Source: Microcystis aeruginosa NIES-843 (lineage in GTDB: Bacteria > Cyanobacteriota > Cyanobacteriia > Cyanobacteriales > Microcystaceae). Taken from it: a DNA stretch of 32,000 bases. Shown one piece after another: positions 25,488 to 29,071 of this stretch. How positions within the stretch are numbered: the stretch's first letter is position 1; the number at the start of each line of letters is the position of its first letter. The translations under genes and the position numbers were made by a program. The notes beneath the pieces were generated by a model, which was given only the letters and a program-made list of their open reading frames with translations, had not been told where the DNA came from and searched no databases. The stretch covers positions 120,001 through 152,000 of the forward strand of contig NC_010296.1 in NCBI RefSeq assembly GCF_000010625.1, in the 5' to 3' direction.

Positions 25488-25796
25488 ATGGCAATTACTT
25501 TTCTCCCCATTCTAGAAAAAATTGGATCGATGCAGAAAACCCCTAGGACGTTATCCCCTGCAGCTAACCTAGCTGATAATAATTGGAATTTTGCCGAGGT
25601 TTGGATCGATCCGCTGCTATCTCCTCCCTATATCTTGCTTTTACTGGCTGAATCTTCAGGAAACTATCGCGTGTACGATCCCTCTGAGGGTTATCAGGTG
25701 GTATTTACCGGTGCGAGTTACGAGGAAGCGGAAAATTGGCTACTAGAGGACGAATTTGAACCGGTAGAGGGACGACTTTCGCCAGTAGAGATATAA
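25488..25796 (+). CDS. Hypothetical protein (102 aa; the start may be the MQKTPR Met at 25530)
   Basis: ORF divergent from the ATPase gene. Its last 16 codons (EDEFEPVEGRLSPVEI*) recur at 28884-28931. Confidence 0.5.
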   Translation: MAITFLPILEKIGSMQKTPRTLSPAANLADNNWNFAEVWIDPLLSPPYILLLLAESSGNYRVYDPSEGYQVVFTGASYEEAENWLLEDEFEPVEGRLSPVEI

Positions 25797-25936
25797 TTTC
25801 CTTATCTTCCTTTCCGCTTTTCTTCGATGCTATCCTTACTAAAAAAGCGATGGAATTGGCTAAAATCGCTTTTTATTGGCAGTCTGAAGGCAATTAACCC
25901 CAAAGAAGTCAAAAATACTCCTCCAGAAGCCAGCGA
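25749..25936 (+). repeat. 188-bp direct repeat, copy 1 (tail of the 25488 ORF, spacer and 5' end of the TPR gene)
   Basis: Collinear with 28884-29071 at equal length with scattered mismatches. A partial third copy lies at 26895-27006. Confidence 0.85.
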
Positions 25937-25952
25937 CGCACCAGAGGGATAG
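25827..25952 (+). pseudogene. Duplicated 5' fragment of the TPR gene (41 codons, then a stop)
   Basis: MLSLLKKRWNWLKSLFIGSLKAINPKEVKNTPPEASDAPEG* vs the TPR gene N-terminus MLSLLKKLWNWLKSLFIASPKAINLKKVENTPPEPSDGEYEG. Confidence 0.75.
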
Positions 25953-25961
25953 ACCGAACTC

Positions 25962-26882
25962 ATGAAAACCGACACGATTTTCTACCGACTTTTTCAAACC
26001 TTTCCCGATCTTCTGTTTGAGTTAATCGACTTTCCCAGGGAATTAGCCAATTTCTATCGATTTTCCTCCGTAGAGGTGAAACAACTATCCTTTCGCATCG
26101 ATGGAGTCTTTCTACCAGAACGGCAAGATTTACCAATTTATTTTACCGAAGTTCAGTTTCAGAATGATCCGGAGTTTTATGCGCGTTTTTTCGCCGAAAT
26201 TTTTCTCTATCTCAAACAGACGCAGTTAAAAAATAATTGGCGCGGGGTGGTGATCTATCCGAATCGAAGGGTGGAAAAGGATAATATAGAGCGATATAGA
26301 GAGCTATTACAAGAAACAAGAGTACAAAGGATTTATCTCGAGGAATTAGCCGAGAGTCCACCAGATTCGCTCGGATTAGCGACGCTAGAGTTAGTAAGCT
26401 TACCCGAAGCGCAAGTGATCAACCGGGGAAGGGAGTTAATCGCGCGAGTGAGGGAAACGGGGGTAGAAAATCGCCCACAGGAACTTTTAGAATTGATAGA
26501 GACGATTTTGATTTACAAGTTGCCGCGGATTAATCGAAAGGAGATAGAAGCTATGTTTAGTTTAAGCGAGTTAAGACAGACGCGTGTGTTTCAGGAGGCC
26601 CTAGAGGAAGGTCGCCAAGAAGGTCGCCAAGAAGGTCGTCAAGAAGGTCGCCAAGAAGGTCGTCAAGAAGGTCGCCAAGAAGGTCGCCAAGAAGGTCGCC
26701 AAGAAGGTCGCCAAGAAGGTCGCCAAGAAGGTCGCCAAGAAGGGGAAATCATCGGAAAATTGGCTTCTGTTCCCTTATTATTGCGAGCGGAGGTTAATCC
26801 CCAAGAAATCGCCGCTTCTCTGGGATTATCTCTCGAACAGGTCTTAGAAGTGGCTCGCTCGCCGGGAGAGAGCGATCGCTAG
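25962..26882 (+). CDS. Rpn/DUF2887-like PD-(D/E)XK nuclease (putative transposase-like), tandem copy 1 (306 aa, 11 EGRQ repeats)
   Basis: MKTDTIFYRLFQTFPDLLFELI, FRIDGVFLPE and PIYFTEVQFQNDPEFYARFFAEIFLY fit the D...ExQ core of Rpn/YhgA-like proteins. A DUF4351-like C-terminal tail follows the repeat block. Confidence 0.7.
   Translation: MKTDTIFYRLFQTFPDLLFELIDFPRELANFYRFSSVEVKQLSFRIDGVFLPERQDLPIYFTEVQFQNDPEFYARFFAEIFLYLKQTQLKNNWRGVVIYPNRRVEKDNIERYRELLQETRVQRIYLEELAESPPDSLGLATLELVSLPEAQVINRGRELIARVRETGVENRPQELLELIETILIYKLPRINRKEIEAMFSLSELRQTRVFQEALEEGRQEGRQEGRQEGRQEGRQEGRQEGRQEGRQEGRQEGRQEGRQEGEIIGKLASVPLLLRAEVNPQEIAASLGLSLEQVLEVARSPGESDR
26607..26738 (+). repeat. In-frame 12-nt tandem repeat gaaggtcg(c/t)caa x11 (EGRQ)
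   Basis: Counted directly in the sequence. Followed by gaagggga (EGE). Confidence 0.95.
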
Positions 26883-27018
26883 GGTATTTTCAGAACTAAA
26901 AAAGCGATGGAATTGGCTAAAATCGCTTTTTATTGGCAGTCTGAAGGCAATTAACCCCAAAAAAGTCAAAAATACTCCTCCAGAAGCCAGCGACGCACCA
27001 GAGGGATAGACCGAACTC

Positions 27019-27927
27019 ATGAAAACCGACACGATTTTCTACCGACTTTTTCAAACCTTTCCCGATCTTCTGTTTGAGTTAATCGACTTTCCCAGCGAAT
27101 TAGCCGATTTCTATCGATTTTCCTCCGTAGAGGTGAAACAACTATCTTTTCGCATCGATGGAGTCTTTCTACCAGAACGGCAAGATTTACCAATTTATTT
27201 TACCGAAGTTCAGTTTCAGAATGATCCGGAGTTTTATGCGCGTTTTTTCGCCGAAATTTTTCTCTATCTCAAACAGACGCAGTTAAAAAACAATTGGCGC
27301 GGGGTGGTGATCTATCCGAATCGAAGGGTGGAAAAGGAGAATATAGAGCGATATAGAGAGCTATTACAAGAAACAAGAGTACAAAGGATTTATCTCGAGG
27401 AATTAGCCGAGAGTCCACCAGATTCGCTCGGATTAGCGACGCTAGAGTTAGTAAGCTTACCCGAAGCGCAAGTGATCAACCGGGGAAGGGAGTTAATCGT
27501 GCGAGTGAGGGAAACGGGGGTAGAAAATCGCCAACAGGAACTTTTAGAATTGATAGAGACGATTTTGATTTACAAGTTGCCGCGGATTAATCGAAAGGAG
27601 ATAGAAGCTATGTTTAGTTTAAGCGAGTTAAGACAGACGCGTGTGTTTCAGGAGGCCCTAGAGGAAGGTCGCCAAGAAGGTCGCCAAGAAGGTCGCCAAG
27701 AAGGTCGCCAAGAAGGTCGCCAAGAAGGTCGCCAAGAAGGTCGTCAAGAAGGTCGCCAAGAAGGTCGCCAAGAAGGTCGCCAAGAAGGGGAAATCATCGG
27801 AAAATTGGCTTCTGTTCCCTTATTATTGCGAGCGGGGGTTAATCCCAAGGAAATCGCCGCTTCTCTGGGATTATCTCTCGAACAGGTCTTAGAAGTGGCT
27901 CGATCGCTGGGAGAGAGCGAGCGCTAG
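27019..27927 (+). CDS. Rpn/DUF2887-like PD-(D/E)XK nuclease, tandem copy 2 (302 aa, 10 EGRQ repeats)
   Basis: Near-identical to copy 1 apart from a few substitutions and one fewer repeat unit. Confidence 0.7.
   Translation: MKTDTIFYRLFQTFPDLLFELIDFPSELADFYRFSSVEVKQLSFRIDGVFLPERQDLPIYFTEVQFQNDPEFYARFFAEIFLYLKQTQLKNNWRGVVIYPNRRVEKENIERYRELLQETRVQRIYLEELAESPPDSLGLATLELVSLPEAQVINRGRELIVRVRETGVENRQQELLELIETILIYKLPRINRKEIEAMFSLSELRQTRVFQEALEEGRQEGRQEGRQEGRQEGRQEGRQEGRQEGRQEGRQEGRQEGEIIGKLASVPLLLRAGVNPKEIAASLGLSLEQVLEVARSLGESER
27664..27783 (+). repeat. In-frame 12-nt tandem repeat x10 (EGRQ)
   Basis: Counted directly in the sequence. Confidence 0.95.
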
Positions 27928-28019
27928 GGTATTTTCAGAAGTTCGATTGCCGATTTCCCCTTTAAGATAAATAGGAACCCCTAAAGGGAAGACTTTCGGC
28001 AGCGGAATAGACCGAACTC

Positions 28020-28844
28020 ATGAAAACCGACACGATTTTCTACCGACTTTTTCAAACCTTTCCCGATCTTCTGTTTGAGTTAATCGACTTTCCCAGGGAA
28101 TTAGCCGATTTCTATCGATTTTCCTCCGTAGAGGTGAAACAACTATCTTTTCGCATCGATGGAGTCTTTCTACCAGAACGGCAAGATTTACCAATTTATT
28201 TTACCGAAGTTCAGTTTCAGAATGATCCGGAGTTTTATGCGCGTTTTTTCGCCGAAATTTTTCTCTATCTCAAACAGACGCAGTTAAAAAACAATTGGCG
28301 CGGGGTGGTGATCTATCCGAATCGAAGGGTGGAAAAGGAGAATATAGAGCGATATAGAGAGCTATTACAAGAAACAAGAGTACAAAGGATTTATCTCGAG
28401 GAATTAGCCGAGAGTCCACCAGATTCGCTCGGATTAGCGACGCTAGAGTTAGTAAGCTTACCCGAAGCGCAAGTGATCAACCAAGTTCGGGAGTTAATCG
28501 TGCGAGTGAGGGAAACGGGGGTAGAAAATCGCCAACAGGAACTTTTAGAATTGATAGAGACGATTTTGATTTACAAGTTGCCGCGGATTAATCGAAAGGA
28601 GATAGAAGCTATGTTTAGTTTAAGCGAGTTAAGACAGACGCGTGTGTTTCAGGAGGCCCTAGAGGAAGGTCGTCAAGAAGGTCGCCAAGAAGGTCGCCAA
28701 GAAGGGGAAATCATCGGAAAATTAGCTTCTGTTCCCTTATTATTGCGAGCGGGGGTTAATCCCCAAGAAATCGCCGCTTCTCTGGGATTATCTCTTGAAC
28801 AGGTCTTAGAAGTGGCTCGCTCGCTGGGAGAGAGCGAGCGCTAG
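28020..28844 (+). CDS. Rpn/DUF2887-like PD-(D/E)XK nuclease, tandem copy 3 (274 aa, 3 EGRQ repeats)
   Basis: Near-identical to copies 1 and 2. The length difference is fully explained by the repeat number. Confidence 0.7.
   Translation: MKTDTIFYRLFQTFPDLLFELIDFPRELADFYRFSSVEVKQLSFRIDGVFLPERQDLPIYFTEVQFQNDPEFYARFFAEIFLYLKQTQLKNNWRGVVIYPNRRVEKENIERYRELLQETRVQRIYLEELAESPPDSLGLATLELVSLPEAQVINQVRELIVRVRETGVENRQQELLELIETILIYKLPRINRKEIEAMFSLSELRQTRVFQEALEEGRQEGRQEGRQEGEIIGKLASVPLLLRAGVNPQEIAASLGLSLEQVLEVARSLGESER
28665..28700 (+). repeat. In-frame 12-nt tandem repeat x3 (EGRQ)
   Basis: Counted directly in the sequence. Confidence 0.95.
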
Positions 28845-28883
28845 GGTATTTTCAGAAGTTCGATTGTCGATTTCCCCTTTCAG

Positions 28884-29071
28884 GACGAATTTGAACCGGT
28901 GGAGGGACGACTTTCGGCAGTAGAGATATAATTTTCTTATCTTCTTTCCCCCCTTTCTTCGATGCTATCCCTACTAAAAAAGCTCTGGAATTGGCTAAAA
29001 TCGCTCTTTATTGCCAGTCCGAAGGCAATTAACCTCAAAAAAGTCGAAAATACTCCTCCAGAACCCAGCGA
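28884..29071 (+). repeat. 188-bp direct repeat, copy 2
   Basis: See 25749-25936. Confidence 0.85.

Follow-up and report, generated by a model that had tools for sequence, protein, structure and literature searches.

Three tandem DUF2887-type rpn genes in Microcystis aeruginosa NIES-843: an array probably amplified in place by duplication and recombination

The closest described relatives of the system examined here are the Rpn proteins of Escherichia coli and of plasmids (RpnA–E and RpnP2), which were characterized by Zhong et al. (2023; PMC10400941). In these systems the full-length protein, RpnL, is a toxic endonuclease, and RpnS is a small C-terminal antitoxin translated from an internal start. 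A four-residue repeat lies in the first helix of RpnS, 8–20 residues past the RpnS methionine; the number of repeats varies widely among strains, and RpnL is neutralised only by an RpnS with the matching repeat number. Standalone rpnS genes can sit downstream. The rpn arrays arise through tandem direct duplication, neither terminal inverted repeats (TIRs) nor target-site duplications (TSDs) accompany them, and the Rpn proteins are unlikely to be transposases (PMC10400941). The DUF2887 family was placed among the PD-(D/E)XK nucleases, with ExQ replacing ExK, by Laganeckas et al. (2010; PMC3045609), who proposed a transposase or DNA-binding role at a time when the internal antitoxin and the repeat variation were not yet known. 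In this work, a tandem array of three DUF2887-type rpn genes was analysed in a 32,000-nt stretch of the Microcystis aeruginosa NIES-843 genome (NC_010296.1, 120,001–152,000), which is called the window. All coordinates are positions in the window, and L-numbers denote the compared loci or contigs, among which L007 is the complete M. ichthyoblabe genome.

The locus is, with good confidence, a locally amplified three-gene Rpn array of the cyanobacterial DUF2887 branch, which occupies a hypervariable spot between a host gene (ORF102) and a TPR gene and was formed by duplication and recombination. Three intact DUF2887/Rpn open reading frames (ORFs) lie head to tail on the + strand, with start-to-start distances of 1057 and 1001 bp. 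This arrangement had been described in a first-pass annotation of the window and was borne out by the ORFs and the family models. The array is bracketed by two copies of a host segment, which is called segment A, and is composed of the following features.

25488–25796, + strand: ORF102, host gene, 102 amino acids (aa), no family match; its last ~16 codons and stop open segment A.
25747–25951, + strand: left copy of A, with the ORF102 tail, the spacer (25797–25826) and a 41-codon TPR-start remnant (25827–25952) ending in TAG.
25962–26882, + strand: rpn gene 1, 306 aa, DUF2887/Rpn nuclease family, 11 EGRQ repeats.
26553–26882, + strand: predicted internal RpnS-type frame of gene 1, 109 aa, from Met198 after cgAAAGGAGatagaagctATG; 12-bp repeats at 26607–26743 (Tandem Repeats Finder, TRF).
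26883–27008, + strand: gene 1/2 junction, a 13-nt 3' flank GGTATTTTCAGAA fused directly to A position 92–end.
27019–27927, + strand: rpn gene 2, 302 aa, 10 EGRQ repeats at 27664–27788, internal start at 27610.
27928–28008, + strand: gene 2/3 junction, a 37-nt 3' flank (F3) followed by roughly the first 45 nt of A in a decayed, strongly diverged form.
28020–28844, + strand: rpn gene 3, 274 aa, 3 EGRQ repeats at 28665–28705, internal start at 28611.
28845–28881, + strand: F3, the 3' flank of the rpn unit after gene 3, 37 nt, not detectably host-derived.
28882–29090, + strand: right copy of A, a non-functional ORF102-tail copy and spacer (28882–28961), then the functional TPR start.
28962–30746, + strand: host TPR gene, intact, 594 aa, with 12.7 near-identical 102-bp repeats.

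The bracketing host repeat had been given as 188 bp, which is essentially right. The copies at 25747–25936 and 28882–29071 align over 190 nt, ungapped, with 91% identity, and comprise the ORF102 tail with its stop (~16 codons, 25747–25796), a 30-nt spacer and ~37 TPR codons, in agreement with the composition described earlier. Beyond the 190 nt, a weaker similarity with an indel may reach a common 'gggata' (25951 and 29090). ORF102 encodes a protein that is identical on nine metagenome contigs and has homologues of 56–73% identity in other cyanobacterial contigs. The left copy of A is the same as the allele of the empty site L002 across the ORF102 tail and the spacer, and its private changes are confined to the non-functional TPR-start part; the TAG that closes the TPR remnant lies 10 nt upstream of rpn gene 1. 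A partial copy of A between genes 1 and 2 had also been reported; it was located at 26895–27008 (A position 92–end) and is 99% identical to the left copy. The degenerate ORF tail noted before gene 3 is present at ~27965–28008, where 'ATA' marks its fusion to the 10-nt leader of rpn, GACCGAACTC, but it derives by decay from another functional allele of ORF102 (the 'DEYEPRKGR' type) and not from this genome's own tail. The conserved ends of the rpn unit, ATAGACCGAACTCATG and TAGGGTATTTTCAGAA, occur three times each in the window versus ~0 expected by chance, and the three copies are distinguishable by single-nucleotide polymorphisms (SNPs), repeat number (11/10/3) and junction type.

The family assignment of the genes was clear. 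All three proteins matched Pfam DUF2887 (PF11103) with E-values of about 3e-78 (262–263 bits, cutoff 24.1), and NCBIfam TIGR01784, 'Rpn family recombination-promoting nuclease/putative transposase', was matched over nearly the full length (127–130 bits, cutoff 52.1). D47 and E63 were invariant and Q65 was nearly so in an alignment with 71 homologues, and all three residues are present in genes 1–3. This D...ExQ pattern matches the PD-(D/E)XK variant published for DUF2887 (PMC3045609). The order of an N-terminal nuclease domain, a long helix and a C-terminal resolvase-like helix-turn-helix (HTH) is likewise shared with DUF2887 as classified there, and resolvase HTH domains (1gdt, 5cy1 and 2r0q) were also returned by a fold search of the rpn C-terminal model. 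The AlphaFold model of the gene 3 protein had a predicted local distance difference test score (pLDDT) of 80, and the modelling is suggestive of a restriction-endonuclease fold for the Rpn protein.

By analogy with the E. coli systems, each gene most likely encodes both a toxic PD-(D/E)XK-type DNA endonuclease (RpnL) and an internal-start antitoxin (RpnS). Met198 was invariant in 72 homologues, and the ribosome-binding context at this methionine, cgAAAGGAGatagaagctATG (AAGGAG-N9-ATG), was identical in 12 of 12 copies from five genomes. The RpnS candidate of gene 3, which starts at 28611, has 77 aa. The AlphaFold2 model of this C-terminal protein (residues 198–274; pLDDT 79) was compared with E. 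coli RpnA-S (7TH0) by Foldseek, which gave a probability of 0.96, a target-normalised template modelling (TM) score of 0.81, a root-mean-square deviation of 1.1 Å over 42 columns and 33% identity. The EGRQ repeat is encoded by a 12-bp unit, GAAGGTCGCCAA (TRF), and begins ~18 residues past Met198, inside the published range of 8–20. The repeat counts were 11/10/3 in the window, 1/9/3/4/3 in L007, 1/8 in L008, 1 in L009 and 6 in L010. The pairing of RpnL with RpnS is most likely set by the EGRQ number in the long helix, as the E. coli precedent would have it; with repeat numbers of 11, 10 and 3, at least gene 3 would then be a toxin-antitoxin (TA) pair separate from genes 1 and 2.

The array in M. 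ichthyoblabe carries three tandem partial rpn copies (L007:4902–6069), each with ~120 nt upstream of Met198 and the RpnS frame. They have 3, 4 and 3 EGRQ repeats, numbers that match neither of the full-length copies there (1 and 9). An AGGG microhomology marks their joints, and the reading frame of the first copy continues into that of the second. These downstream partial copies in a sister strain parallel the standalone RpnS described for E. coli (PMC10400941). The Rpn family model, the PD-(D/E)XK-type N-terminus, the RpnA-S-like C-terminus, the internal methionine with a ribosome-binding site, the variable four-residue repeat, the arrays made by tandem duplication, and the lack of TIRs and TSDs are all shared with the E. 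coli proteins. However, the window genes belong to the DUF2887 (PF11103) branch and not to the PF04754-type YhgA branch, they have no sequence match to 7TH0, and the EGRQ unit has no hydrophobic residue of the kind described as usual. Moreover, no ~200-bp host duplication around rpn arrays was found described in the main text of PMC10400941.

The same locus was compared among related strains, and states with 0, 1, 2, 3, and two full plus three partial rpn copies were found.

Empty state (ORF102, a single copy of A, TPR): L002, L091, L102, L117, L119 and L120.
One rpn copy, right junction F3 followed by A position 1: L088 and L090.
One rpn copy, right junction 13 nt followed by A position 31: L009, L094, L115 and L093.
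A 5'-truncated rpn copy: L010.
Two rpn copies: L008.
At least two rpn copies, joined by the gene 2/3 junction of the window (98% identity): L092.
Three rpn copies: the window.
Two full and three partial copies, other genes in place of the TPR gene: L007.

The gene 1/2 junction was identical in the window, L007 and L008, and the junction of F3 followed by A also occurred in L008, L010, L088 and L090. Every junction type of the window thus recurred in independent assemblies, which makes an assembly artefact unlikely. The rpn copies within one genome differed at 3–11 of 640 sites, whereas array copies from different genomes with the same duplication junction (window, L007 and L008) differed at 9–17 of 640 sites. 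The smaller differences within genomes indicate concerted evolution. The range of copy numbers, from 0 to 3 or more, and the several junction types support the earlier suggestion that the gene was amplified together with its flanks by recombination. An ancestral state in which ORF102 was directly followed by the TPR gene had also been proposed. The six empty contigs with a single copy of A agree with it, but they would look no different if recombination between the two A copies had deleted the DNA in between. Tandem pairs were found at 6 of the 80 cyanobacterial DUF2887 loci fetched, and DUF2887 genes in cyanobacteria appear to be generally prone to local duplication. At L013:3991–7189, L024:3583–6139 and L031:3740–7255 (Microcystis and Sphaerospermopsis; ~55–60% identical), the members of the tandem pairs were 96–99% identical to each other, and these three loci also carried extra N- or C-terminal partial copies.

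In the account of array formation given here, the structures are observed, and the order of events is inferred. A single old event would have set rpn between two ~200-bp host copies; both host genes would have been kept intact, with rpn placed after a copy of the ORF102–TPR spacer. The left junction of A with rpn appears to have arisen once, since almost all left copies of A (exceptions L004 and L094) have private changes in common, such as GCGATGG, whereas the right and empty copies have GCTCTGG. Unequal recombination between copies of A would next have doubled the whole unit [A-rpn-F3], and a later deletion of A from position ~46 to its end, between two 'ATA' microhomologies, would have produced the gene 2/3 junction. 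The gene 1/2 junction would be a separate illegitimate join of the 13-nt flank to A position 92, and the junction at A position 31 another such join. Gene conversion may then keep the copies of one genome alike, while the number of 12-bp repeats shifts quickly. Head-to-tail units, copy-number polymorphism, common novel joints and concerted evolution are all shared with tandem amplification by unequal recombination in general. Unlike that general case, the present array was seeded by a host-segment duplication that spared both flanking genes, and it contains a fast-changing internal 12-bp repeat.

Two further explanations of the array were considered, and both were set aside with high confidence. 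It is very improbable that a locus with one or two copies was misassembled into three. Short-read assemblies do break inside the repeat, and the contigs of this locus often end inside the first copy or repeat (L003–L006, L015, L087, L098 and L108). However, SNPs, repeat number (11/10/3) and junction type all set the copies apart, and the junctions recur independently: the gene 1/2 junction in L007 and L008, the gene 2/3 junction in L092, and F3-A in L008/L010/L088/L090. The idea of the rpn unit as an autonomous mobile element, with Rpn as its transposase and the array as a record of repeated insertion at a hot spot, has been largely refuted and is scarcely credible. It draws on the database name 'putative transposase', on the presence/absence polymorphism of the locus, and on a six-base inverted match (CGAACT/AGTTCG) near the two ends of the unit; this match is missing from the units with only the 13-nt flank, and its chance expectation is roughly 0.1. 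No TIRs or short target duplications were found flanking the rpn units, as the first-pass annotation had stated, and the right end of the unit varies, with 13 or 37 nt of flank joined to A at position 1, 31 or 92. A genuine miniature inverted-repeat transposable element (MITE) lies at this locus, inside ORF102 at the equivalent of ~25594, and disrupts that gene in L009:3426–3626 (201 bp) and L102:4684–5009 (326 bp, with an internal duplication). It has an 11/12-nt TIR, GGCGTTGTCA(G/A)AT, and an 8-bp target duplication, AATTTTGC; a footprint of classical transposition would therefore be visible at this locus, and rpn has none. Furthermore, all homologues with at least 86% aa identity (five species-level genomes, including the complete M. 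ichthyoblabe) are at the ORF102/TPR locus, so that nothing suggests recent movement, and the earlier statement that these genes move was not upheld. The next relatives, at 69% (L121/L122) and ~60% identity, are located elsewhere, and their similarity to the window starts at the ATG and does not go past the stop codon. No shared leader or trailer was found in the flanks of L121, L122 and other Microcystis paralogues, and the donor context is hence not traceable. Together with the published conclusion on Rpn (PMC10400941), these results argue against a transposase role of the Rpn protein. The earlier conclusion of recombination in place of transposition is supported as far as amplification is concerned, but it had already been published in 2023 (PMC10400941).

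How rpn came to lie between two copies of A is a separate matter, and the statement that it entered the TPR 5' region was a deduction only. Two ORF102 tail alleles are present in the population, ...EDEFEPVEGRLSPVEI (window and L002) and ...EDEYEPRKGRLSPVEI (L091:5001–5306). The 'DEYEPRKGR' tail is functional at the empty site L091 and is found as a non-functional tail to the right of rpn in L008, L010, L088 and L090, whose functional left tails are of the standard allele. The match of the non-functional tails to a distinct functional allele indicates that the left and right host copies often come from different alleles; as far as these sequences go, this fits the integration of DNA from another strain, although later allelic exchange could look alike. 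The A-rpn-A arrangement may accordingly be assigned, as a tentative refinement of the first step that falls short of a firm preference, to recombination between different alleles or strains, either by homology-facilitated illegitimate recombination or by a Campbell-type single crossover in A with a circle [A + rpn]. In the illegitimate route, homology would anchor the left end of an incoming Microcystis [ORF102-spacer-TPR start-rpn] molecule, and its right end would be joined illegitimately inside the recipient ORF102 tail. Both routes would leave a long direct repeat of host DNA, and its two copies may stem from different alleles. The decayed 'DEYEPRKGR' copy in the gene 2/3 junction of the window speaks for such an origin, as do the right boundaries, which are arbitrary as illegitimate joins predict, and an unrelated hicBA cassette at the same spot, which has its own 104-bp duplication, bounded differently on the right (about 25722), and a right copy of the other allele type in L089 and L118 and of the standard type in L093. 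Against it, Microcystis recombines often, and ordinary allelic replacement could have exchanged the right copy once A had been duplicated in situ. The right copy in the window itself belongs to the standard allele type. A donor with rpn fused after TPR codon 41 would also be needed, and neither such a donor structure nor a circular form was found. An origin within one chromosome is somewhat doubtful. Here rpn would have been copied by template switching or microhomology-mediated copying, or A would have been duplicated and rpn captured at the novel joint; in the former route, rpn would have been copied into the TPR 5' region from another place, and copying would have resumed ~200 bp upstream. 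In either route the non-functional halves would then have decayed. Each copy of A in the window departs from the L002 allele largely in its non-functional part, microhomology joins are seen (AGGG in L007 and ATA at the gene 2/3 junction), and tandem duplications are frequent at the locus and in the family, all of which speaks for this origin. However, the complete M. ichthyoblabe genome has no source copy of rpn elsewhere, its nearest paralogue there being ~60% identical; the right pseudo-tail in several strains is a distinct functional allele and not random decay; and the microhomology at the outer junctions is minimal (AG on the right, with the left uncertain). A long direct host repeat, an arbitrary right boundary and host copies that are sometimes of different alleles are shared with Campbell-type or homology-facilitated illegitimate integration. 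The likeness is an analogy of footprints only, as no circular intermediate, integrase or donor structure was seen at this locus.

Several results weigh against the proposed array history and its toxin-antitoxin interpretation. The exact copy number in this genome depends on its assembly. No intermediate of the first A-rpn-A event was found among the compared strains, and the event is not reconstructable. Nonsynonymous changes dominate among the three copies, yet the ratio of nonsynonymous to synonymous changes is roughly neutral, and diversifying selection is therefore not demonstrated. With regard to function, the toxin, antitoxin and antiphage roles were inferred from the E. coli homologues and would be carried over only by that analogy. 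The whole-protein fold search was weak and non-significant, with the restriction-endonuclease-fold nucleases N.BspD6I, EndoMS, Cap4 and EcoO109I on top (E 0.05–0.7). The Foldseek E-value of the C-terminal domain against 7TH0 was only 0.5, because this domain is small. A protein sequence search against PDB chains did not find RpnA-S 7TH0, the DUF2887 branch being distant from RpnA, and PADLOC v2 gave no match for the Rpn, RpnS, HicA or HicB proteins. The promoter-like site upstream of the internal start was a weak consensus match that was not above chance.

The hicB-hicA toxin-antitoxin pair lies directly after A position 79, just past the ORF102–TPR spacer, in L089, L118, L093, L096, L097, L099 and L100. 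HicB has 68 aa and HicA 75 aa (Pfam HicA_toxin, E 9e-19), and the cassette was delimited in three contigs.

L089:5338–5889: hicBA cassette, insertion point equivalent to 25825/25826.
L118:352–903: hicBA cassette, same insertion point.
L093:3208–3768: hicBA cassette, same insertion point.

After hicBA, the host copy resumes at the equivalent of ~25722, which gives a 104-bp direct duplication (window-equivalent ~25722–25825). Two unrelated cassettes, rpn and hicBA, are thus found at the same spot, each with a long host duplication that spares both ORF102 and the TPR gene. In L001, L095, L116 and the right end of L007, other genes replace the TPR gene after A position 79 (in L001, hicB and a patatin-like gene). 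Judged by the sequences compared, the ORF102/TPR junction is a recombination hot spot. It might further be a recurrent capture site, at which TA and defence cassettes are installed independently of a transposase while 100–200 bp of host DNA is duplicated; this broader proposal is speculative and rather unlikely. Capture could proceed by integration of a circular 'cassette plus flank' or by an illegitimate join of transformed DNA that is anchored by homology, and the Rpn nuclease itself might stimulate it; the duplication would spare both neighbours and give each cassette a copy of the intergenic region. If this were true generally, the spread of non-autonomous defence genes between strains would be recognisable from the long host-flank duplications left behind.

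Some further features of the flanks were recorded. F3 was considered as a decayed copy of host 25700–25746, by which the duplication would reach ~250 bp; this candidate was rejected, as the similarity is at chance level apart from the common GGTATTT (p = 0.5 without GGTATTT; p = 0.12 against random genomic 47-mers). Base pairing is possible between F3 and the neighbouring non-functional copy of the ORF102 tail, through TTGCCGA/TTCGGCA and CCCTTTC/GAAAGGG (window 28858–28915; L008:4899–4960), and the gene 2/3 junction (27941–28000) carries CCCTTTA/TAAAGGG, an apparent compensatory change in this pairing. The fold z-scores of the intergenic F3/ORF102-tail hairpins were marginal (+0.6 to -2.0). 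A perfect 10-bp hairpin, AAAAAGCGAT-N13-ATCGCTTTTT, followed by a T-rich stretch, is located upstream of rpn genes 1 and 2, at 25843–25878 and 26900–26935. It is created by private changes in the non-functional TPR-start copies (GCTCTGG to GCGATGG and GCTCTTT to GCTTTTT) and resembles a terminator or attenuator (fold z about -2). A promoter/terminator scan of the locus gave nothing above chance.

In the neighbourhood, the TPR repeats at 29466–30758 comprise 12.7 copies of a 102-bp (34-aa) unit with a mean match of 88%. The 300-nt blocks 29466–29765 and 29772–30071 are 100% identical, which indicates a recent internal duplication or conversion, and the TPR length differs between strains. A UPF0175-family ORF (31057–31335, 92 aa, antitoxin-like; Pfam E 5e-15, weak PADLOC match to PDC-S70) lies downstream of the TPR gene and adds to the toxin-antitoxin character of the neighbourhood. 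The window is also rich in insertion sequences, with ORFs within 122–2296, 4309–5982, 7447–8661, 14554–15453 and 17176–18390. Two ISL3-family transposase ORFs (404 aa each, with identical Pfam scores), two DUF4277+DDE_Tnp_1 (IS4-like) ORFs, one of them shorter, and two adjacent HTH + DDE_3 (IS630-like) pairs were identified among them.

Rpn is a recently described and little-studied defence family, and its DUF2887 branch is abundant in bloom-forming Microcystis. Tandem direct duplication of rpn arrays is already known (Zhong et al., 2023; PMC10400941). The present analysis extends the RpnL/RpnS features to the cyanobacterial DUF2887 branch, at the level of sequences and models, and adds a well-resolved population series at one locus and a host-flank duplication footprint that is common to rpn and hicBA. 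One site in one genus displays 0, 1, 2, 3 and 2 + 3 partial copies; EGRQ counts range from 1 to 11, and antitoxin-like fragments occur on their own. As a model locus, this site may help to show how changes in rpn arrays and in repeat number come about, and whether copies that differ in repeat number are independent TA pairs. Moreover, the host-flank duplications at rpn and hicBA hint at a common recombination route by which such cassettes are captured.

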